From Dictyostelium discoideum (lineage: Eukaryota): a stretch of 64,000 nt of DNA. The notes under the pieces are model-generated. The model saw only the letters and a list, made by a program, of their open reading frames with translations. It was not told where the DNA came from and searched no databases. Below, piece after piece: positions 1 through 12,737 of the stretch (the first letter of the stretch is position 1; each line of letters begins with the position of its first letter). The position numbers and the translations under genes were made by a program. The stretch lies in NCBI GenBank assembly GCA_000004695.1, contig CM000155.2, positions 672,001 to 736,000 on the forward strand, given 5' to 3'.

Positions 1-401
1 TTGAAGAGGCTTCAAAATTATCAAATTCTCATTCATTCATCATTGATTTACCAAATGGTTATAACACAGAGTTGGGTGAGAAATACACTCAATTATCAGG
101 TGGTCAAAAACAACGTATAGCAATTGCTCGTGCAATCATTCGTAATCCAAAGATTTTATTATTGGATGAGTCAACCTCTGCATTGGATGCTGATTCAACA
201 AAATTAGTTCAAGAAGCACTAGAAAATGTTATGAAAGGTCGTACTACTATAGTCATCGCTCATAATTTACTAACAATTCAAAATGCAGATTGCATTGCCT
301 ATGTTCGTGCTGGTCAAATCATTGAAAGAGGTACTCATGATGAGTTATTAGAAGCTGAAGGTCCTTATTCTCAATTATGGTATAATCAACAACAAAAATA
401 A
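1..401 (+). CDS. ABC transporter (ABCB-type) C-terminal nucleotide-binding domain; 5' end cut by the window edge
   Basis: Frame is open from position 1. It carries the ABC signature [14 protein letters not shown], Walker [13 protein letters not shown] and H-loop IAHNL, and ends at TAA 399-401. Confidence 0.85.
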
Positions 402-552: not shown

Positions 553-1128
553 TTATTGATTTGCAATAGGATTTGCATGAATTGTAACAGATTTTAAAAT
601 GATTTCATTTAAAGGTAAATCTTTATCATCAACGGGTACTTTTTCCATTAAATCTAAAACTTCAATACCTGCTATTATCTTTCCAAATACTGTATAAACT
701 TTATTTAAACTTCTATGTTTTCCATATGTTATAAAAAATTGTGACCCATTTGTATCTGGTCCACTATTTGCCATTGATAAAATTCCACGTGTATTATGCT
801 ATAATTATTATTATTATAATAAAATTTTAATATTTAATTTATAAATATATATAAATGTTGAACTAAAAAAATAAATTATTATAATTACTTTTAAATGTGA
901 CGGAAATTCATCCTTAAATTGCTTTTTCCAAATACTTTCACCACCTCTACCTGTATTTGTTGGATCACCACCCTGTATCATAAATCCTTTAATGTTTCTA
1001 TGAAATATTGTGTTGTTATAATAGTTTGATGCACATAATGCTAAAAAATTTTCAGATGCTAAAGGAACTGAATCACAAAAAATTTCAACTTTAATATCTC
1101 CTAAACTTGTATGTAAAGTGACTGACAT
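553..1128 (-). CDS. Peptidyl-prolyl cis-trans isomerase, cyclophilin PPIL3-like (about 161 aa)
   Basis: Two exons on the minus strand: 1128..889 ([17 protein letters not shown]...KDEFPSHLK) and 798..553 ([27 protein letters not shown]...). The 90-bp intron 888..799 runs from GTAATT to a TAG acceptor. Length and collinearity match the PPIL3 sequence I recall. Confidence 0.85.
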
Positions 1129-1729
1129 TCTAAATATTTATTAATTTGTTTTTTTTTTTTTTTTTTTCTTTATTTCAACAAATGAAAAAACAATAGTGAA
1201 AAAAAAAAAATCAAAGAAAATTTAAAAATGAAATTTTTATTTTTTTTTTTATTTTTTTTTATTTTATTTTATTTTATTTCGCATAAAAGTAATAATTTAA
1301 AAGATTGTGATTGAAAATGACTGGGGGATAAGGGATTATTATAATTTGGTATTTAATTTATAAAAACAAAATATGTTGATCCTATGTTGTCTAATATTTT
1401 TTATTTTTTAGATCTATTTTTATTATTTTTTATTATTTTTTATTATTTTTTATTTTTTATTTTTTTTTTTAAATTTTATCACCATCTGTTTTTTTTTTAA
1501 CCCAAAAACTTTATTTTTAGAATTCAATTATTCGCCATTCATTTTTTGTAATTGAAGGGAATAAATTTTATTAAAAAAAATTGATTTTAATTTATTTATT
1601 TTTTTTTTTTTTTAAAAAAAGACAAATAGGTCAACAGAATATAAAATTTAAATTAAACAGTATTAATAAAAAAAAAAAAAAGTTGGAATAACAATTATAA
1701 TTTTATATTTATTTTATTTTTAATATTTT

Positions 1730-1769
<40 letters not shown>

Positions 1770-1795
1770 AAATTCGAATGATAAGAATATTTTAT

Positions 1796-3024
1796 TCAAT
1801 CAGCAGTTTTCTTTTCCTTGTCCGAAGTAGATAAATTCTTTAAAAGATCAAGCAATTCATCTGCACCATCACTACCATCTCCACCATTATCATCACTTTC
1901 ATCACTTTCATAATAGTTATCTGAATTGATTTCTGGTTTATATTTATCATCCCCAATATAAAATCTTCTATGTTTTCCAGAATCATAAAAAAACACATCG
2001 TCTTTATATGCTGATTTAATCTTTTCTTTATATACAAGAATTAGAGAATGATCATTATCATTCAGATCCATTTCACCATCAGTACAAACCATTCTTAATT
2101 TTTTTGCAATTATTTTGAAATCCTCCAAGATTTCATGTGATTTTTTGAAAACAAATTCCATTGGACTCTCACCATTCTCAATTTTCATTATTCCTGCCTT
2201 CTGTTGATGTTTATATCCCGTATATCTTTGATTGTTAAAAAAAATTCTTTTTTCCAAAGTGTATCCGGCAATAAATGGACTTTCGATAATATTATTCCTT
2301 GTTGGAATATGGTATGATACGTTGGATCATCTTTTTTAGTCTGAGAGATTATCAAATGTACCTTGTCACCCAATCTTTGAACTTTAGAACATGATAAACA
2401 GAAATCACTAATCAAATTAGGAAGACTTGGATCCATAAATGAACTTCTATCATGAGGCATTGACCAATATATTTTTGAATATCTTTCATTTGATTCATGT
2501 ATTTTTGTTGCATCTAATCCAAAAATAACAGTACATTCAGAAATTATTAAAAATTCAATATTTTTAATTGTCAACAAACAGTTATCACATTTTTTAACAT
2601 TATCTTCACAACATCCGTAGGTTGTAACTCCAGTTTTTATAAGTACATCCTTATGAACTTTAAATTTATTGTAAACTGTTTGGGAAATATATAAATCTGA
2701 AGCGGTTATTTTTAAAAATTTCCCATCATTTGTGTGATGATTTTGGTTATGTTTTTCCAATAAAGAAGTTGAAAATGAGAAATTTCCTTCGCCTACAAAT
2801 AAAATTTTATGATGTCTCTCTGCTTTACATTTCGAAAGTGGGGCTCTAGTTTGGAGGAAAAAAAAATAAAAAAAAAAAAAATAAAAATAATTTAAAATGA
2901 TAAATTCAAATTTAAAATAATTTGGAAATTAAATATTTTATTCTAATAATTACTTGGTTTCAGATTTAGACACTCTTTTAGAAATTTCAGATATTTTTTT
3001 TTTATTTGGTTGAGGTGTATACAT
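1796..3024 (-). pseudogene. DUF2431/Bmt5-like family, copy 1; frame broken once
   Basis: Exon 1 is 3024..2954 (MYTPQPNKKKISEISKRVSKSETK, then donor GTAATT). The intron 2953..2846 ends in TAG. Exon 2 starts at 2845 (APLSKCKAERHHKILFVGEGNFSFSTSLL...). Relative to the intact copy at 6305..7554, the frame breaks near 2290-2330, which splits the gene into track ORFs 2188..2760 and 1796..2257. This is either a pseudogene or a single-base assembly error. Confidence 0.5.
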
Positions 3025-3420
3025 TTTCAAATATATATATTTTATTTGATAGGTTGTTTTTTTAAAAAAAAAAAAAAAATTTTAGTTCATTGTTTTTTTT
3101 ATCTTATTTTTTTAAATTTTTTTTTTTTAATTTTTTTTTTTTAATTTTTTTAATTTATTTTATTATTTAAAATTGATTTATCAGGTCAATTTCATATAAA
3201 TTTCATAAAATTCTCAATAAAATTGGTTTGATTTTAAAATTAAAAAAAAAAAATTAAAAAAAAAAAAATTTTTTTAAAAATTTGATAAAAAAAACTTTAA
3301 TCAATAATTTTTATTTTTTTATTTTTTTTTATTTAAAATTGATTTGGGTGGTCTTTCGTATAAAAATAAACTTTAAAAAAAGAATGATCCAAATGTTTTT
3401 GAAATGATTAATTTAAAATA

Positions 3421-3535
3421 ATTTTGAAATTAAATATTACTTGGTATCAGATTTAGACTCTCTTTTAAAAATTTCAATTTTTTTTTTAATTTGGTTGGGG
3501 TATATCTTAAAATATTTTATTTGATAGGTTGTTTG

Positions 3536-3540
<5 letters not shown>
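3421..3540 (-). pseudogene. Degenerate relic of the family's exon 1 plus its 5' flank
   Basis: This stretch is about 85% identical to 2941..3060 and 7481..7590, but the ATG is lost (gaggtgtatacattttc has become ggggtatatcttaaaat). Confidence 0.35.
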
Positions 3541-3584
<44 letters not shown>

Positions 3585-3949
3585 TTTTCAAAGTTTTTTT
3601 TTATATTATTTTTTAAATTTTTTTTTTTTTTTTATAATTAAAAATTGGTTTGTGTGCCAATTTCATATAATTCTCATAAAATTCTTAATAAAACTAATTT
3701 TTTTAAAACTCTCAATAAAATGGGTTTGTTTAAAATTAAAAAAAAAAAAAATTTTAAAAATAAGATAAAAAAAACTTATATTCATTTAAAATTGATTTGT
3801 TCTGTTAATTATAAAAATCTCATATGAAATTCTAAATAATAAAATAAATATATAAAAAAAAAAGAGTGATCCAGAATTCTACATTAGGAGCATTTGATGA
3901 TACAACTTTCTTTACCAAGGAAGGTTCGCCTGAGCCACTTTAGAAATTT

Positions 3950-4150
3950 GAGATCTGAAAAATTGAGACCACTTTGGGAATTTGAGATTTAAAAAATTGA
4001 GACCACTTTAGAAATTTGAGAATTAAAAAATTTGAGATTTGAGTATCTAAAAGAAATCAAATTTGAAATTAAATTTACTCTTAATCATATTAAAAAAAAT
4101 TATTAACCAATGATTTTAATAAAATACCAAATGAATTCTCCAAACCAAAA
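3950..4150. repeat. Duplicated fragments of the 3' end of the large gene at 9611..12151
   Basis: Two gagaccac-containing copies (plus partial repeats) of a unit resembling tttgagatttgtggcagtgtctaaagaaatcaaatttgaa at 9731-9770, and cttaatcatattaaaaaaaattattaaccaatgattttaataaaataccaaatgaattct, are near-copies of 9721-9860. Confidence 0.6.
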
Positions 4151-4236
4151 GGGAAAAAAAAAAAAAAAAGTTGGAAATACAATTATAATTTCATTTTAAT
4201 TTTTTTTTTTATTTTTAAATTGAAACTTTTGGTTAT

Positions 4237-4340
4237 GTTTTTTCAAAAATGATGTTGAAAATGAGAAATTTCCTTCACCTACAAATAATATTTTATGATG
4301 TCTCCCTGCTTTAAATTTTCGTAGTGGAGCTCTAATTTAG

Positions 4341-4394
<54 letters not shown>

Positions 4395-4560
4395 TAAAAT
4401 GATAAATTTAAAATAATTTGGAAATTAAATATTTAATTAAATAATTACTTGGTATCAGATTTAGATACTCTTTTTAGAAATTTTAAATATTTTTTTTTTT
4501 ATTTGGTTGAGGTGTATACATTTAAAATATAAATTTTATTTGATAGGTTGGTCAAAAAAA
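4237..4560 (-). pseudogene. Orphan 5' fragment of the DUF2431-like family (exon 1, intron, first ~80 nt of exon 2)
   Basis: Exon 1 with ATG (gaggtgtatacatttaaaat), the intron, and the exon-2 start (gaaaatgagaaatttccttcacctacaaataatattttatgatgtctccctgc) are present. The gene body is missing downstream of about 4237. Confidence 0.5.
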
Positions 4561-4799
4561 AAAAAAAAAAAAAAAAATTTTTTTTTTTATTTTTTAATCT
4601 TATTTATAGTGATGCCAAAAAGTTTTATTTTGGCTTAAGTTTTTAAAATTGATTTTTATAAATCTCATAAAATTCTCAATAAAATGGTGATTTAAATTTT
4701 TTTTAAATTAAATTTTTTTTTTTATTTTTTTTTTTTAATTTAAATTTTTTTTTTTTTTTTAATATTAATTTTTTTATTTTATTTTTTTTTTTTATTATA

Positions 4800-4970
4800 A
4801 AGCTCTAAAAATGAAGTTGGTATTTTAATTGATTTAAAAAATTTGAGATTTGAGGCAGTGTATAAAAGAAATCAAGTTTGAAATTAAATTAAAAAATTTA
4901 CTCTTAATCATATTGAAAAAAATTATTAACCAATGATTTTAATAAAATACCCAATGAATTCTCCTATCAG
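4800..4970. repeat. Second duplicated fragment of the 3' end of the gene at 9611..12151
   Basis: agctctaaaaatgaagttggtattttaattgatttaaaaaatttgagatttgaggcagtgtataaaagaaatcaagtttgaa ... ctcttaatcatattgaaaaaaattattaaccaatgattttaataaaataccc is collinear with 9680-9860. Confidence 0.6.
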
Positions 4971-5004
<34 letters not shown>

Positions 5005-5352
5005 GAAAATACAATTCCAATTTCATTTTAATTTTTTTTTTTTTTTTATTATTAAATTGAAATGATAAGAATATTTTATTCATACATTAGTTTTCAATTG
5101 TTTTATTTTAAAATTGGTAAATTCTTAAAAAAAAAAAAAAAATAAATTAAAAAATAAAAATAAATTAAAAAATAAATTAAAAATAAAATTTTTTTTTTTT
5201 TTAATTTAAAAAAATAAGATAAAAAAAACTTTGATCAATTTTTTTTTTTTTTTATATTCATTCATTTAAAATTGATTTGTGTGGTAATTCATATAAATCT
5301 CATATAAAATAATTAATATTATATAAATTTAATATATTAAAAAAAAAAAAAA

Positions 5353-5943
5353 ATGAATGATTCAGATGTTTTTAAAATTTTACTAATTGGTGATTCAGCA
5401 GTTGGAAAAACATCGTTATTATTAAGATTTACAGATCCCAATAATTTTCAAGAGACTTCAGTAAATATGACTAGTGTTGATTATAAAAATAAAAATATAA
5501 CTATTGATGGAAGAACATTTAATTTACAAATTTGGGATACAGCAGGACAAGAGAGATTCAGAACAATTACATCATCTTTTTATAGAGGAGCACATGGTGT
5601 TTTAGTATGTTATGATGTCACTGATCAACTTACATATAATAACGTTGGGTTATGGATGCAAGAAATTCAAAGATATGGAGTACTTGGAGTTAGTAGAGTT
5701 TTAGTTGGAAACAAATGTGATCTCGAAGATAGAAAATTGGTTAACGCTTCAATTGCCCAAGAATACGCTGATATTCTCGGTATTCCATTCATTGAAACTT
5801 CTGCTACAACTGGTGTTAATGTAGAAGAGGCTTTCATGGCAATGGCAGATGAAATTTATAGAAATCATATAGGTGGCTCAAAACCTTCTGTTGTAAAACC
5901 AGTATGTGGAAGTCCTCCCCGCACGAAAAAAAATATTTGCTAA
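5353..5943 (+). CDS. Rab-family small GTPase (Rab1/Rab8-like, divergent)
   Basis: It has G1 [10 protein letters not shown]3 [10 protein letters not shown]4 GNKCDL and G5 ETSA. It is a single exon and ends ...TKKNIC, with no CC or CXC prenylation pair. It sits inside the tandem array of the DUF2431-like family. Confidence 0.8.
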
Positions 5944-6056
5944 TTTTAAAGAAGAGTGGATAGAAGAAGGAGGGTTTTTGCCAATTATTTTAAAGTTTCA
6001 TATAATTGCAACATCAAAAAATAAATAAAAAAATATAAAATGTAAAATTTAAATGG

Positions 6057-6097
<41 letters not shown>

Positions 6098-6304
6098 AAA
6101 CTTTTTTTAGTTTTTTTAATCAATTCCTTATTTCTATTTAGTTTATTAATAGTTCTTTTTTTTTATTTTCATAATTATCTTATTTTTTTATTTTTTTTTA
6201 TTTAAAATATAGAACATATTTATATTTCAATAAATATGTTATATATGTTTCTTATTTTTATTAAATTGAAAAGATAAGAATATTTGATCCAAACAAAATT
6301 TTTC

Positions 6305-7554
6305 TTATAATTGTCTATTTTTGTCTGAAGTGGATAAATTCTTAAAATTATTGAAAAATGATTCATCTTCACTATCATCATGATTATCACCATGATCATC
6401 ATGATCATCATAATAGTCATCTGAGCCAAACTCTGGTTCATAATCATCATCTCCAATATAATAACGTCTATAGCCTTCTTTTTCATAATACCTTAATTTC
6501 TTATATGATGATTGAATCTTGGTTTCATATTTATTACTTATAACTTTATCATTTCCTTGAAGATCTATTTCCCCAACAGTTCTTAATTTTAAAGCAACAT
6601 TTTTGTATTTTTCTAAAACTTTTCCAGATTTTTTGAAAACAAATTCCATTCGATGTTTTCCATTCTCAACTTGGTCTGTTCCTTCTGTCTGTTGATGTTT
6701 ATATCCCTTATATCTTTGATCGTCAAAATAATATCTTTTTTCCAAAGTGTATCCAGCAATAAATGGGCTTTCGATAATATTATATACACAGCCTTGTTGG
6801 AATTCGGTATGATAGGTTTTTTTTCGATGTATCAAATTTTGAGAGATTATCAAATGTACCTTGTCACCCAATTTTTGTACTTGAGAACATGATAAACAGA
6901 AATCACTTATCAAATTAGGGAGACTTGGTGTTGAATATTTAGTTCTATCATGAGGCATTGACCAATATATTTTTGAATATTTTTCGGTTGATTCATGTAT
7001 TTTTTTTGCATCTAATCCAAAAATTACTTGGCAATCGAATTTTATTAAATAATTAATATTTTCAATTGTTAACAAACAGTTTTCACATTTTTTATCAGCT
7101 TTTGGTCCACAAAAATCTTCAGGACATTGGTATTTTTCAACTCCAGTTTCTTTAAGTACATATCCACAATCTTCGAATACTTTAAAAACAGTTTCACATA
7201 CAAATAAATCTGAAGCGGTTATTTTTAAAAGATTATTATCATTTGTGTGAAATTTTTGGTTATGTTTTTTCAATAAAGATGTTGAAAATGAGAAATTTCC
7301 TTCACCTACAAATAAAATTTTATGATGTCTCTCTTCTTTACATTTTGATAGTGGAGCTCTAATTTAGAAATAAAAAAAAAAAAAAAATAAAAAAAAAAAT
7401 AAAAAAAAAAAAAAAAAAAAAATAAATTTTTAATAATTAATTTTTAATAATTTGGAAATTAAATGTTTTAATTAAATAATTACTTTGTATCAGATTTAGA
7501 CACTCTATTAGAAATTTCAGATATTTTTTTTTTATTTGGTTGAGGTGTTAACAT
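6305..7554 (-). CDS. DUF2431/Bmt5-like (Rossmann methyltransferase-like) family protein; intact copy, about 374 aa
   Basis: Exon 1 is 7554..7484 (MLTPQPNKKKISEISNRVSKSDTK, then donor GTAATT). The intron 7483..7359 ends in TAG. Exon 2 is 7358..6305 (APLSKCKEERHHKILFVGEGNFSFSTSLLKKHNQKF... through the acidic DDHDDHGDNHDD tail). The intron phase is consistent across the junction. Confidence 0.7.
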
Positions 7555-8075
7555 TTTCAAATATATAAATATTTTATATGATAGGTTGATGAAAAAAAAA
7601 AATTTTTTTTAAAATAAGATAAAAAAACTTAAGGGTTCTAAAATAAAAAAAAAAAGCCAATAATTTTTTTTTTTTAATTTAATTTTATTCCAAATTGATT
7701 TGTCTGGCTAATTTCATCTAAATCTCATTTTGTTTTTATTAAAATTTCATTAAATTTTAAATAAAAAAAAAAAAATTAAAAAAAATAAGATCTAACCTTC
7801 GCGTTTTTTTTGAGGTTGCTTTTTTAAAATTTTGAATTTTTTTTTTTTTTTTTTCTTTTAAAATTTATCATATCATTACCATTTAAAACTTCAAATAATG
7901 ATTTGCACTTTGGGACCCACTATAATTTGTTCAAATAATTGTTTTGTTTCGAAAAAAAAAAAAATAAAAAAAAAAAAGGTTGGAAATACAATTATAATTT
8001 TATTTTATTTTAATTTTAATTTTTTTTAATTTTTTTTGCTTTTTTTATTAAATTGAAATGATATGAATCTTTGAT

Positions 8076-9051
8076 TCAGAGAGCAGTTTTCTTATAATTG
8101 TCTACTATTGTCTGAAGTGGATAAACTCTTAAAACTATTGAGAGATGATTCATATTCACTATATCAGAGTTGAATTGTGGTTGATAATCATCATCTCCAA
8201 TATAATAACGTCTAATGCCCTCTATATCAAAATACAATAAGTTATATGATGACTGAATCATGATTTTATATTCATTAATTCTATCTTCGTCATCTCCTAG
8301 AAGATCTATTATAAAAAATCTTCTAAATTTTGATGCAACATTTTTGTAATTTTCTAAAATTATACCAGATTTTTTGAAAACAAATTCCATTAGACCTACA
8401 CTATCAACTGTCATTGTTCCTTGTGTATTTTGATGTTTATATCCCTCATATCTATTATTCTTAAAATGAATTCTTTTTTCCAAAGTGTACCCAGCCTTCA
8501 ATAATATTGTAAACAATGCCTTGTTGGGATTGGGTATGAATGGCTGAATAATCATCTTTATAAACTTGAGCGATTATAAAATGTACCTTGTCACCCAATT
8601 TTTGTGCTTCAGAACATGATAAACAGAGATCACCAATCAAATGAGGAAGAGTTCCTTTTTTAAATGAACTATTAGGCATTGACCAATATTTTTGAATATT
8701 TTTCATTTGATTCATGTATTTTTCTTGCATCTAATCCAAAAATAACTTTGCATTGAGAATTTATTAAAAATTTAATATTTTCAATTGTCAACAAACAGTT
8801 TTCACTTTTATTATCATCTTTTGTTCCACAATATTCCTTAATACATTTGAAGATTTTAACTCCAGTTTCTTTAAGTACATCTCCACAATCTTTGAATTCA
8901 TTAAAAACAGTTTCACACACATAAATCTGAAGCGGTTATTTTTAAAAATTGATTATCATTTGTATAAAGATGTTGAAAATGAGAAATTTCCTTCACCAAC
9001 AAATAATATTTTATGATGTCTCTGCTTTACATTTTGGAATTTGATTTTTAA

Positions 9052-9087
<36 letters not shown>

Positions 9088-9200
9088 ATTTAAAATGGTT
9101 AATCTAAAATAATTTGGAAATTAAATATATTAATTAAATAACTACTTTGTATCAGATTTATAGACTGTTTTAGAAATTTCTGTTATAATTTCTATATCTG
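8076..9200 (-). pseudogene. DUF2431/Bmt5-like family, copy 3; multiply disrupted
   Basis: The body is split into three frames (track ORFs 8672..8920, 8461..8730, 8076..8555). The exon-1 donor has decayed to GTAGTT (9121-9200) and the exon-2 acceptor region is deleted. Confidence 0.6.
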
Positions 9201-9610
9201 GTTGAGGTGTATTCATTTTCAAATATATATTTTATTTGATTGGAATTTATTAAATTATAAAGTAAAAAATTTAAAAAAAAAAACTTTTAACAATAGTTAT
9301 TTTTTTTTTTTTTTAAAATTTAATTTTTTTAAAATAAATTTATTTTAATAATTCTCAGATTTGTGAGAAAAAAAAATAAAATAAAAAAATAAAAATAAAT
9401 TCTAAAAATAATTATCAAATGTTTTATTTTTATTTTTTTATTTTTATTTTTTTTTTCTCATAATCTGAGAAAAAAGATTTTTTCCCCACCCGATTTATCA
9501 ATTAAATCAAAATATTTTAATAATTGATTAATGGGGGAAAAAAAAAATAAAAAAAAAAAAAAAATTTTATTTATTTAATTTTTTTAAACTTTTTTTATTT
9601 TTTTTTTTTT

Positions 9611-12151
9611 TTAGAATCTGTTTTTAACACCACTTAAAAAATAATCATAAATTATAGAATCATTATTATCCTTAAAATATTGATTACAAAGCTCTACAAA
9701 TAAAGTTGGTCTTTTAATTGATTCAAAAAATTTGAGATTTGTGGCAGTGTCTAAAGAAATCAAATTTGAATATGATACTGAAATTAACTCTTCAGCATAT
9801 TTAAATAATAAATTATTAACCAATGATTTTAATAAATCACCAAATGAATTCTTGAAACTACCACATGAACAATTCCTTCCAAAAATAAATTCAAATGAGA
9901 ATATATTTGGTAATAAATAATTTCTAATTTGATAAGAAATTGAATTATTATTATTATTATTATTAAGAGTGACAGGAGGTGTTTGAATATTTGAATATTG
10001 TTTATTACAATCATAAAATCTACTATAAGGGATAGTAGTTTCGTGTGGAAATGATAGTATATATTTTGTAAACTTTGGAGATCTAATATGAAGAAAATAA
10101 AATGTTTCATATAATCCAGGTTCACTGAACCAACTTGGGTAACCAGTATTTCCATTATTAATATATTGGTGTACTGATTCCATCATTTCAATTGTAAAAC
10201 CTTTATGTTGAATTAATTTTCTATAAAGATGTTGAATCATTATGTTAATACCATTACTAAAAGGCACATATTCTTTAAATCTATCATAAAATGATTTTAT
10301 TAGAGTGATCATTGCAGTAATATCGGTAGCAACTTTACCATCACCATTACCATTATTACTATCATCATCACCATAATGATATATTATACGATTAGCTCCA
10401 TATCCATGTTTGAAAATGATTGCTTTAGTATTAATTGAAGGATTATAAGATTCAACTAAATCATCGAATATATTTGAATCAAATTTAACCTTTTTACAAC
10501 AATTATTTAATAAAAATTGTAATTGAATTAAATCCAATTTAAAAATTGAATTTACAATAATTTCTTGAATCTCTTTAATTTTGAAATTCTCTTCAATTTT
10601 AAATTCTAAAAATGCTGCTTCTGTTGCTGATGATGATGATGATTGTGATGATTTATAATATCGAACTAATTGATTATAAAATCTTTTTAAATTTTCATTT
10701 GTAAAACTTTTAAATTTTGATTGATTTAAATAATTTAATAATTTAATAATTTGTTTAATTGGAGTATTTGGTAAAATGAAATCATCATCATCATTATCAT
10801 TATCATTATCATTAGATTGAAAGTCTAAAACTTTAATATTTAATGAATCTATAATTTTCAAATTATTTAAATCACATTGTTGGATTGATTTCTTGAATAG
10901 GTATCTAAATATATACTCTTTTGATTGTTGCTCTACTTGTATTGAATTCTCTTTGCCTTTTAAATAAAATGATTGAATTGATTTAAAAGAATTTAATTGA
11001 CCTGTTACTTCTTTACTATCATTATTATTATTATTATTATTATTACTATTATTATTATTAAAATTATATGCATATTGAATTATTTGAAAATCAGTAAAAA
11101 CAATAGAATGATCATTTAATAATACTGATAAAATAACTTTATTTTCAAATGAAATTAACCAATTTATAATTAATTTATCAGATATTATTAATGAATAAGA
11201 TTGTTGTTTTTCTAAATTTTGATTATTATTATTATTTTTAATATATTTTAAAATTGGAAACATATGAAATTTCTTTAAATTCATTTTCTTTTTATATTCA
11301 TTATAAAAATTAATTATAAATGGTATTGAAATTGATGGTTTACTTAATTTAATATATCTTAAAAATGAAATTAAATAAGATTCATCAGAACCATCATTTT
11401 TATCTTTAAATTCATCTTTATTATCTTTGAATGCATTTAAATAATGATCACCATAATAAAATTCATCAAGTTCATCTTTACATTGATGAAATTCATCAAT
11501 TGATTCATTATATTTTAAAATGTAATCTTTATATAATTCTATTTGTTTTGTTTCAATAATTATAAATTTTTGTAATTTTTTTAATTTATATTTTTCAATA
11601 TCACAACTACTACCACTACTACCACTTTTACTACCACTACTACTACCACTACTACCACTACTATTGCTACTGATTTTTTTAATTTTATTATTAATTTTAT
11701 CTAATTTTGAATCAAGTGGTTTAATTGGTTTATTTAAAACATGGATTAAATTTGTTCTATGTGTAAATAATAATTCATCAAATGATTGATTAATTGTTAA
11801 ATTAAATGGTTTAGTGACGAAAAGACGATTTGTAAAGATTGATAAATCATAGATTTTATTTAATAAATTATAATTTTCAAAATCATATATTTTTCCAAAT
11901 GAAAAACTATTTTTTTCATCATTACATTTTGAATCGTATAAACCACTATTAAATAAGAAAAATTCTAATAATTGTTCTCTACTTTCTTCTCTATTCTTTA
12001 AAATTAATGATATTAATGTTTTATTTCCAATAAATGGTTCAACTTTTTCAATTTTACCATATTGTTGAATTTGAATTTTTATAAATTCTTTTATAAATTC
12101 GATACTTGAATATTTTAAAACATATTGTAAATTTGATGGTAAAACTTTCAT
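9611..12151 (-). CDS. Large low-complexity hypothetical protein (846-aa ORF; N-terminus probably extends upstream)
   Basis: One continuous ORF with Asn, Ser/Gly and Asp runs. The frame stays open upstream of the first Met, through NNNIEKKLFTDFDLIKLSIKSNRIKIFKLLISEPYS, into the (AAT)n tract. Confidence 0.55.
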   Translation of the reverse strand: MKVLPSNLQYVLKYSSIEFIKEFIKIQIQQYGKIEKVEPFIGNKTLISLILKNREESREQLLEFFLFNSGLYDSKCNDEKNSFSFGKIYDFENYNLLNKIYDLSIFTNRLFVTKPFNLTINQSFDELLFTHRTNLIHVLNKPIKPLDSKLDKINNKIKKISSNSSGSSGSSSGSKSGSSGSSCDIEKYKLKKLQKFIIIETKQIELYKDYILKYNESIDEFHQCKDELDEFYYGDHYLNAFKDNKDEFKDKNDGSDESYLISFLRYIKLSKPSISIPFIINFYNEYKKKMNLKKFHMFPILKYIKNNNNNQNLEKQQSYSLIISDKLIINWLISFENKVILSVLLNDHSIVFTDFQIIQYAYNFNNNNSNNNNNNNNDSKEVTGQLNSFKSIQSFYLKGKENSIQVEQQSKEYIFRYLFKKSIQQCDLNNLKIIDSLNIKVLDFQSNDNDNDNDDDDFILPNTPIKQIIKLLNYLNQSKFKSFTNENLKRFYNQLVRYYKSSQSSSSSATEAAFLEFKIEENFKIKEIQEIIVNSIFKLDLIQLQFLLNNCCKKVKFDSNIFDDLVESYNPSINTKAIIFKHGYGANRIIYHYGDDDSNNGNGDGKVATDITAMITLIKSFYDRFKEYVPFSNGINIMIQHLYRKLIQHKGFTIEMMESVHQYINNGNTGYPSWFSEPGLYETFYFLHIRSPKFTKYILSFPHETTIPYSRFYDCNKQYSNIQTPPVTLNNNNNNNSISYQIRNYLLPNIFSFEFIFGRNCSCGSFKNSFGDLLKSLVNNLLFKYAEELISVSYSNLISLDTATNLKFFESIKRPTLFVELCNQYFKDNNDSIIYDYFLSGVKNRF

Positions 12152-12240: not shown

Positions 12241-12737
<497 letters not shown>

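Follow-up and report, generated by a model that had tools for sequence, protein, structure and literature searches.

The window analyzed here, a 64,000-nucleotide stretch of Dictyostelium discoideum AX4 chromosome 6 (contig CM000155.2, positions 672,001 to 736,000), contains on its minus strand an array of BMT5-like genes formed by three long two-exon copies and three truncated units, with an intervening Rab gene. Comparison of the encoded sequences gave good support to the membership of the Dictyostelium proteins in a bacterial-type clade, and they are assigned to a bacterial, mainly chlamydial, BMT5-like subfamily. The whole would be best explained by gene transfer, gain of a 5' exon, tandem amplification, and birth-and-death turnover of the copies, a reading to which we give a probability of roughly 0.6; the bacterium-to-amoeba transfer, taken by itself, is considered probable. 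Two AX4 genes of the array and their Pfam label were already public, and the array itself is ordinary, but its chlamydial-type identity, its narrow distribution, and its selection pattern are, as far as could be checked, unreported. Literature searches retrieved no paper on either public gene (DDB_G0291740 and DDB_G0291770), on DUF2431 in Chlamydiae, or on Protochlamydia methyltransferase effectors.

Copy 2 (6305..7554, minus strand), the only intact copy in AX4, consists of exon 1 (7554..7484), an intron (7483..7359, GTAATT..TTAG), and exon 2 (7358..6305). Conceptual splicing of both exons yielded a protein identical to DDB_G0291740 over all 374 residues, and the exon structure advanced in the original prediction, which had been made from the sequence alone, turned out to be that of the public gene model. 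The same prediction had seen a resemblance to the DUF2431/Bmt5 family, and this family assignment held when the Pfam comparison was run: the copy 2 protein matched the BMT5-like family PF10354 (formerly DUF2431) with 58.9 bits (E = 9.8e-16; gathering cutoff, 24.7), in two stretches split by a Cys insert, while frame-repaired copy 1 matched it with 66.6 bits in one stretch covering profile positions 1 to 167 of 168. The AlphaFold (AF2) model of the copy 2 protein, obtained with a 45-sequence alignment as input, adopted a class I (Rossmann-like) methyltransferase fold (predicted local distance difference test [pLDDT], 75.7; predicted template modeling score, 0.77); the six Dictyostelium sequences alone gave an unusable pLDDT of 39.7. 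A sequence search of the PDB revealed no relative.

Motif I (LFVGEGNFS), D74 after strand beta-2, the GLDA motif, and the W-S-M-P-H-D loop were invariant across the Dictyostelium copies. Motif I corresponds to residues L39-F40-V41-G42-E43-G44-N45-F46-S47, of which G42 and F46 were conserved across the 45 family members. In the catalytic loop W156, P159, H160, and D161 were conserved, and the Asn was replaced by Ser in every Dictyostelium copy; thus, the loop reads WSMPHD in Dictyostelium, WNCPHDG in bacteria, and WNFPHAG in the fungal BMT5-like protein. Ser occupies this position in other N-methyltransferase motifs, and methyltransferase activity with a Ser-containing loop is plausible. From these motifs, DDB_G0291740 would be likely to bind S-adenosylmethionine (SAM) via VGEGNFSF and D74, and it probably N-methylates an RNA base via the WSMPHD loop, the family version of (D/N/S)-x-P-(H/Y/F).

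A word-indexed search with the single protein produced matches solely from the D. discoideum complex. In an exhaustive HMMER search of 1.84e9 representatives, 303 were recovered at E <= 1e-3 and 176 at E <= 1e-10. The best matches outside Dictyostelium (E = 1e-38 and weaker) were full-length and collinear, and those among the best matches that bore a taxonomic label were all chlamydial or from other bacteria. No named eukaryote was found among the 30 top representatives looked up, and no homolog from another dictyostelid among the 150 best representatives, as judged by an amino acid composition screen plus three cluster look-ups. Named relatives included several paralogs from "Candidatus Protochlamydia amoebophila" and from Parachlamydia; the P. 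amoebophila gene lies in a context of LpxK, isocitrate dehydrogenase, and SIS genes. Fourteen loci emerged when 185,579 bacterial and archaeal genomes were scanned. Of these, 11 carried a Chlamydiae label, among them loci from Parachlamydiaceae HS-T3, from Rhabdochlamydiaceae, and from a complete Neptunochlamydia chromosome; the remaining three came from one "Verrucomicrobia" and two "uncultured bacterium" metagenome-assembled genomes (MAGs). The Neptunochlamydia match looked fragmented, with a 182-aa open reading frame (ORF) alone beneath it (L016 5001-5728), and it was not used as a reference; this "Candidatus Neptunochlamydia" copy may be a pseudogene.

The closeness of the Dictyostelium proteins to the bacterial ones was examined with a hidden Markov model profile built from chlamydial and metagenomic sequences only. 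Against this chlamydia-only profile the Dictyostelium proteins scored 148 to 182 bits, whereas the canonical fungal BMT5-like protein scored 66 bits (78 bits, E = 2.6e-16, against a mixed profile), and a single domain of the profile spanned residues 21 to 314 of DDB_G0291740. The original prediction had considered the Cys-rich middle and the acidic tail of the protein unusual. On the contrary, both are common, position for position, to this mainly chlamydial subfamily. The Cys insert, of 40 to 67 residues with CxxC pairs, lies between strand beta-2 and the helix preceding the G(V/L)D(A/G) motif; at least three Cys residues plus a CxxC were present in 34 of the 35 sequences with a long insert, while only 1 of the 53 short-form sequences contained a CxxC. 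This short, insert-less form is that of the fungal protein and of other bacterial groups. For their part, the Dictyostelium inserts have 52 to 57 residues and four to six Cys, and terminate in CENC or CPNC, which lines up with the bacterial C..C. The acidic tails could also be aligned (RRYYIGDDDYE..GSDDYYDD in Dictyostelium and R.YY.C..D.DSSDY in bacteria), although the C-terminal columns alone contributed almost no score (0 to 5 bits); many bacterial relatives end in the acidic ..D.DSSDY motif. Judged from the alignments, the hallmarks of the subfamily are a 4-Cys, putatively zinc-ribbon-like insert, a (R/K)IHWNCPHDG loop, and an acidic C-terminal tail. Bacterial relatives were found fused to leucine-rich repeat (LRR), tetratricopeptide repeat (TPR), and Sel1 modules and, with weak matches, to an OTU-like protease domain. 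Fusions with LRR, TPR, or Sel1 modules are typical of proteins delivered into hosts by intracellular bacteria.

The genes might instead derive from a eukaryotic BMT5 paralog, inherited vertically and evolving very fast, whose chlamydial likeness would be an artifact of rate or composition. The significant Pfam match, the fast evolution of the family (dN/dS ratio near 1; see below), and the spliceosomal intron and host composition of the genes are all in agreement with such an origin. However, fast evolution should lower similarity to everything, so that the approximately threefold gain in bit score toward one bacterial group, over the full length and including the insert and the C-terminal region, speaks against it. 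Besides, only 303 of the 1.84e9 representatives were reached at E <= 1e-3, leaving most eukaryotic BMT5 proteins undetected, and the chlamydial proteins are not AT-rich like the Dictyostelium ones. We regard vertical descent as rather improbable.

The distribution of the genes within the dictyostelids was narrow. All annotated BMT5-like matches of this type belonged to assemblies of D. discoideum or D. cf. discoideum. The annotated proteomes of nine further dictyostelids (D. citrinum, D. dimigraforme, D. firmibasis, D. purpureum, Polysphondylium, Acytostelium, Tieghemostelium, Heterostelium, and Cavenderia), present in the same database as shown by a Rab search, yielded none. Contamination was rejected on the basis of synteny in five assemblies: on chromosome-scale contigs of five independent assemblies, the genes are flanked by host genes (ATP-binding cassette [ABC] transporter, cyclophilin, Rab, and the gene that bounds the array on the other side, hereafter the neighboring gene). 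They also bear marks of host integration, namely, a spliceosomal intron and a host-like G+C content at third codon positions (GC3), which was 0.147 for the BMT5-like gene, 0.15 to 0.165 for the adjacent Rab and ABC transporter genes, and 0.28 for the Protochlamydia gene. The sole intron sits in a nonhomologous N-terminal leader, and the entire bacterial-like region is encoded by exon 2.

The shared insert, the taxonomic breadth of the bacterial side, and parsimony are the reasons for proposing a chlamydial donor and a bacterium-to-amoeba direction. An ancestor of the D. discoideum complex would have acquired the gene from an intracellular bacterium of the amoeba-dwelling kind, and the gene would then have taken on the host base composition together with a short 5' exon and an intron. 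A unit of about 1.7 kb would have been amplified in tandem by unequal recombination, at least one duplication taking in the 3' end of the neighboring gene, and a Rab1-like retrocopy would have landed in the array and stayed conserved. The copies would turn over by birth and death, leaving AX4 at present with copy 2 intact, copy 1 freshly dead, copy 3 heavily decayed, and three truncated units.

The birth-and-death turnover put forward in the original prediction was borne out by the variation in copy number and intactness among six assemblies. The syntenic order (ABC transporter, cyclophilin, array, neighboring gene, ependymin-like, Mnd1, and SMC genes) was recovered from four assemblies other than AX4. 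ACTFIW contained four copies, three of them intact (362, 379, and 373 aa) and one with a 1-bp frameshift. ACTFIR contained three, with deletions of 424 bp in one, of 86 and 10 bp in another, and two 1-bp deletions in the third, while ACTFIY and ACTFIZ contained two copies each, all damaged. The Rab gene was present in the first three of these assemblies and absent from ACTFIZ. A sixth assembly, ACTFIT, is known from one protein alone, which matched the decayed copy 3 of AX4. The intact ACTFIW paralogs diverged by 15 to 25% from one another. The annotation of ACTFIZ (D. cf. discoideum) joins one BMT5-like copy to a piece from the interior of the neighboring gene (ESYNISINIKAIIFKIKYGHNF), matching approximately positions 10300 to 10440 of the window; this fusion is an independent duplication junction. 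The other assemblies differed from AX4 by 8 to 14% in the flanking DNA, and they are best viewed as a species complex. ACTFIW and ACTFIR, both labeled Dictyostelium discoideum, were just 86 to 93% identical to AX4 in this region, conserved genes included, a divergence above the within-species expectation; they may represent cryptic species.

The dN/dS comparison suggested in the original prediction was performed on the intact copies across assemblies, with Nei-Gojobori estimates. The ratio was 0.79 between AX4 copy 2 and its ortholog and ranged from 0.88 to 1.11 among intact paralogs, while it was 0.14 for the adjacent Rab gene, which has a dS of 0.13, as in the copy 2 ortholog pair, and a similar GC3, and 0 for the ABC transporter and cyclophilin genes. 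Within the BMT5-like protein, the ratio dropped to 0.16 in residues 31 to 60, 0.33 in residues 35 to 76 (motif I to beta-2), 0.35 in residues 121 to 150, and 0.42 in residues 211 to 240; the remaining windows gave values of 0.9 to 2.2. Between the 374- and 379-codon frames of copy 2 and its ortholog, 112 substitutions had accumulated without a stop, and all indels were in frame. Nonsense changes make up 7% of the substitutions possible in the coding sequence of copy 2. When substitutions were simulated with the observed spectrum, the probability of a frame remaining open after 112 neutral substitutions was 2.5e-4. Thus, the intact copies have been kept open by selection while most residues change freely.

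These values bear on the possibility that the array is a gene graveyard in which all the copies, DDB_G0291740 included, are functionless neutral relics. Ratios of 0.8 to 1.1 agree with it, as do the lesions carried by most copies in other assemblies (both copies are nonintact in each of two D. cf. discoideum assemblies, and all three ACTFIR copies are frameshifted) and the lack of a known function. Nevertheless, the open frame after 112 substitutions, the retention in ACTFIW of three intact paralogs that have diverged by 15 to 25%, and the fall of dN/dS to 0.16 to 0.42 exactly at the SAM-binding and core blocks make this explanation very improbable. The data are fitted less well by a housekeeping rRNA enzyme or by pure drift than by a dispensable (nonessential) gene under diversifying or fluctuating selection, and that selection is plausibly tied to interactions with intracellular bacteria. 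A step further, and doubtful, is the idea that the array is a domesticated chlamydial effector gene used in conflict with intracellular bacteria, where it might compete, act as a decoy, or serve as a self-modifying RNA methyltransferase. If so, the dN/dS values of about 1 or higher outside the SAM-binding blocks would reflect positive selection, and differences in copy number and intactness between isolates would track exposure to chlamydial symbionts. Wild D. discoideum isolates carry chlamydiae (bioRxiv 10.1101/2024.11.01.621453); the paper that describes them makes no mention of the BMT5-like family.

Several observations weigh against the transfer and turnover of a functional chlamydial-type gene. 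The distances of the Dictyostelium proteins to all non-Dictyostelium sequences are about 1.3 to 1.5 substitutions per site and are saturated. In neighbor-joining trees with 100 bootstraps (179 sequences and a reduced set of 86, with the insert masked), the Dictyostelium sequences were monophyletic with a support of 100, but an insert-bearing sister group received 22 and an insert-less one 74; this topology was not used because the long Dictyostelium branch attaches to other long branches. When the insert was masked, the Dictyostelium core scored about 180 bits on both insert-bearing and insert-less bacterial profiles, so the specific link to Chlamydiae depends on the Cys insert and on which taxa the labeled matches belong to. 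The Dictyostelium insert contains one clean CxxC only, the first being degenerate and the other Cys residues differently spaced, and the catalytic-loop residue is Ser instead of Asn in all the Dictyostelium copies. The eukaryotic reference consisted of one canonical BMT5-like sequence plus the Pfam model, and the absence from other dictyostelids covers annotated proteomes, which unannotated pseudogenes would escape. Finally, most copies in the other assemblies are damaged, and the family may be heading for loss rather than being functional. Several copies elsewhere are disabled by 1-bp deletions alone, including one that falls within the exon 1 A10 run, and some of these frameshifts may be long-read homopolymer or assembly errors and not true pseudogenization.

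Part of this evidence would also suit a transfer in the reverse direction, in which Chlamydiae took up an amoebozoan (dictyostelid-like) BMT5-type gene as a "eukaryotic-like" effector and the array is the vertical remnant of the donor lineage. The trees do not nest Dictyostelium inside Chlamydiae, and the masked core shows no preference for the chlamydial core group. Moreover, the proteins on which PF10354 was defined are eukaryotic, and the uptake of host genes by intracellular bacteria is well established. However, the bacterial side is a large and diverse clade (176 representatives at E <= 1e-10) that spans several chlamydial families and Gammaproteobacteria and shows many domain architectures, whereas the eukaryotic side amounts to one species complex and one gene each in Trichoplax and Planococcus, with no match in the nine other dictyostelid proteomes of the same database. 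In addition, the insert-bearing form present in Dictyostelium is the derived one, since the short insert-less form is common to fungi and many bacteria. Capture by Chlamydiae is considered unlikely, and transfer from a bacterium to the amoeba remains the preferred direction.

Self-BLASTN and a repeat finder delimited the array and showed that the tandem two-exon family described in the original prediction is real. Three long direct repeats (1669-3269, 6248-7791, and 7966-9349) shared 71 to 75% nucleotide identity, and shorter matches corresponded to two truncated units (3362-3777 and 4221-4605) and a 3' stub (4975-5130); self-BLASTN detected no further similar repeats in the rest of the 64-kb window. 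A pattern search gave four matches each for a 25-nt flank motif and for a 35-mer coding for motif I, none being expected by chance in either case. The flank motif ("aaaagttgg...") had been taken as a 5' flank; the genes are on the minus strand, and therefore it is a 3' flank, which is missing at copy 2. It was located at 1678..1702 in unit 1 (AAAAGTTGGAATAACAATTATAATT; plus strand, downstream of the copy 1 stop codon) and at 7975..7999 in unit 3 (plus strand). The window has an extremely AT-rich composition (approximately 20% GC), and no tRNA genes were detected in it by a tRNA scan.

As regards the individual copies, the earlier description of one intact, one nearly intact, and one decayed copy was upheld by alignment to intact relatives. 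Copy 1 (1796..3024, minus strand; DDB_G0291770) comprises exon 1 (3024..2954), an intron (2953..2846), and exon 2 (2845..1796). Its sole frameshifting lesion, in accordance with the single frame break proposed originally, is a 7-bp deletion near position 2296, and its ATG, GT, and AG are intact. The public DDB_G0291770 model is a truncated annotation of 242 aa that ends just past this frameshift. Copy 1 is a young pseudogene, recently killed by one 7-bp deletion. Copy 3, previously placed at 8076..9200, lies at 8092..9216 (minus strand), with its ATG at 9214-9216, a GTAGTT donor, and an acceptor in which AG has changed to AA. Six frameshifting deletions (2, 26, 2, 2, 11, and 40 bp) were catalogued in this decayed pseudogene against FIW_373, an intact ortholog from another assembly, to which it is still 94% identical. 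The introns, originally predicted at about 110 bp, measure 108 nt in copy 1 and 125 nt in copy 2.

The upstream regions of the long copies also belong to the repeat units. That of copy 1 (3025..3364, minus strand) lies on the promoter side and showed matches between 3236-3364 and 5157-5297 and between 2858-3297 and 3362-3777 by self-BLASTN, and that of copy 2 (7555..7791, minus strand) extends to the end of its unit at 7791. The three truncated units, all on the minus strand, differ in what they retain. The first (3362..3777) has the distal part of the intron, an exon 1 remnant, and the upstream region, without exon 2, and is 71% identical to 2858-3297 and 80% identical to 4397-4577. The second (4166..4605) is internally deleted: the 3'-flank motif (4166-4190) is joined directly to approximately the first 90 nt of exon 2, followed by the intron, exon 1, and the upstream region; it contains the motif I 35-mer (4254-4288), and its segment 4221-4564 matched 7248-7602 with 87% identity. 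The third (4975..5350) is gutted, with the flank motif (4998-5022), the gene end (to 5130), and an upstream-type repeat (5157-5350) but no gene body; matches were observed between 4975-5130 and 7952-8134, between 5039-5130 and 6248-6347, and between 5176-5350 and 7589-7775.

Two of the units are preceded by fragments of the 3' coding end of the neighboring gene, whose source lies at 9680-9858. One is a degenerate copy at 4020..4145 (plus strand), where 4025-4145 matched 9725-9858 with 80% identity and 4020-4225 matched 4831-5062 with 82% identity. The other, at 4791..4962 (plus strand), is a duplication junction that is 84% identical to 9680-9852 and collinear in ACTFIR. The duplicated segments therefore reached into that gene, and we infer that the array was built by tandem segmental duplication via unequal recombination, with deletions afterwards. 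Imperfect short tandem repeats (gagaccacttt(a/g)g(a/g)aatttgagat...) occupy positions 3890 to 4060 of the window, and they appear to derive from the duplicated 3' end of the neighboring gene (compare 9722-9760).

The Rab gene located inside the array (5353..5943, plus strand) is intronless and encodes a Rab1-like GTPase of 196 aa (Pfam Ras, 185.6 bits), the C terminus of which (...KKNIC) is unlike the usual CC or CXC Rab prenylation motif. It is followed by a segment resembling a 3' untranslated region (UTR) that ends in an A40 run (5944..6096, plus strand; run at 6057-6096) and is homologous, up to the run, with the region downstream of an intron-containing paralog. A Rab paralog in ACTFIZ, 85% identical and situated at another locus between Med20 and DUF218 genes, has three introns that are precisely absent from the array gene. 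Given the missing introns and the end of the UTR homology at the A40 run, the array Rab is probably a processed retrocopy that landed there, although A runs are common in this genome. Its dN/dS ratio of 0.14 to 0.16 against three assemblies denotes purifying selection, and the gene was found in the syntenic interval of ACTFIW, ACTFIR, and ACTFIY but not in that of D. cf. discoideum ACTFIZ.

The left border of the array is formed by the 3' end of the ABC transporter gene (1-401, plus strand) and a two-exon cyclophilin gene (553-1128, minus strand), both of whose proteins are 100% conserved across assemblies. On the other side, the array is bounded by the neighboring gene (9611..12151, minus strand), which was the source of the duplicated fragments and is syntenic in all assemblies. 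Its 846-aa ORF contains no Pfam domain. In AX4 the gene probably extends farther upstream, across an intron (ORF 12363..12737), since its products are longer in three other assemblies (1,082 to 1,143 aa); ACTFIY contains a 1,245-aa fused model. The neighboring gene is very AT-rich (GC3, 0.08) and, like the BMT5-like genes, evolves fast: its dN/dS ratio against three other assemblies was 1.2 to 1.5, although this value may be inflated by extreme codon bias.

Among the leading models for the interaction of hosts with bacteria is D. discoideum, whose wild isolates often harbor chlamydial endosymbionts. A family that is nearest to effector-like chlamydial proteins, confined to one species complex, amplified, fast-evolving, and variably inactivated would link the effector repertoires of symbionts to the evolution of the host genome. 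AX4 has a single intact copy, which makes the family experimentally tractable. The analysis also outlines an uncharacterized bacterial branch of BMT5-like proteins with a 4-Cys insert, an acidic tail, and frequent LRR, TPR, and Sel1 fusions. The Dictyostelium genes should not be assigned a function on the strength of their database label, "25S rRNA (uridine-N3)-methyltransferase BMT5-like."

Compared with known systems, the mechanism that shaped the array is ordinary. As in other birth-and-death tandem families, there are head-to-tail units, junction pieces of a flanking gene, graded decay, and a copy number that varies between assemblies, and the array Rab resembles processed retrogenes in lacking the introns of its paralog and in ending at an A run. 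With the TrmN/Trm14 tRNA m2G methyltransferases (PDB 3tma and 3tlj), the copy 2 protein has in common only the Rossmann core (about 150 residues, 13 to 17% identity); it has no equivalent of the THUMP domain, and there is no relationship at the sequence level.

The founding member of the family is yeast Bmt5 (YIL096C), which converts U2634 of 25S rRNA to 3-methyluridine (m3U) (PMC3950682). The formation of m3U is lost or strongly diminished in the bmt5-G182R mutant, in which a conserved glycine of the SAM-binding motif is changed (PMC3950682). Bmt5 and the Dictyostelium protein share PF10354, the Rossmann-like class I fold, the glycine-rich SAM motif, and the x-P-H loop. Nevertheless, the canonical fungal BMT5-like protein is far more distant from the Dictyostelium proteins than the bacterial ones are. 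Compared with Bmt5, the Dictyostelium proteins carry the 4-Cys insert (some 30 additional residues) and are extended at the C terminus by about 100 residues with an acidic tail; Ser also replaces Asn in the loop. Thus, of the Bmt5-family relationship proposed originally, membership of PF10354 stands, whereas orthology to Bmt5 was not supported, the best non-Dictyostelium matches being chlamydial or metagenomic and the fungal protein reaching only 66 bits against 148 to 182 on the chlamydial profile. The rRNA m3U activity, the substrate, and the nucleolar location of Bmt5 are therefore not transferable.

Sporadic eukaryotic members of the bacterial-type clade are found in Trichoplax adhaerens (TRIADDRAFT_53956; an intronless gene on a 9.7-Mb scaffold that has the Cys insert) and Planococcus citri (LOC135846521). 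Both are single genes, not arrays, and scored 220 to 300 bits on the bacterial profile, compared to 148 to 182 for Dictyostelium. The closest counterparts are the proteins of environmental Chlamydiae (PRO82_002182, PRO82_002015, Parachlamydiaceae HS-T3, and Rhabdochlamydiaceae MAGs), which are collinear with the Dictyostelium proteins over their full length, with 27 to 32% identity. Their chlamydial genes are intronless, have a GC3 of about 0.28, lie among bacterial housekeeping genes, and in some cases bear LRR, TPR, or Sel1 fusions, whereas those of Dictyostelium have a 5' exon and an intron, the host composition, a longer His/Asp-rich tail, and WSMPHD in place of WNCPHDG. Common to both are an N-terminal C..H..(R/K)(I/L)L(F/I/V)GEGNFS, the Cys insert ending in CxxC, (R/K)I(H/Y)W..PHD, (F)(Y/Q)QG.VY(N/D)I, RY.GY.H..T, the (R/M)EFVF(x)K strand, and the acidic tail.

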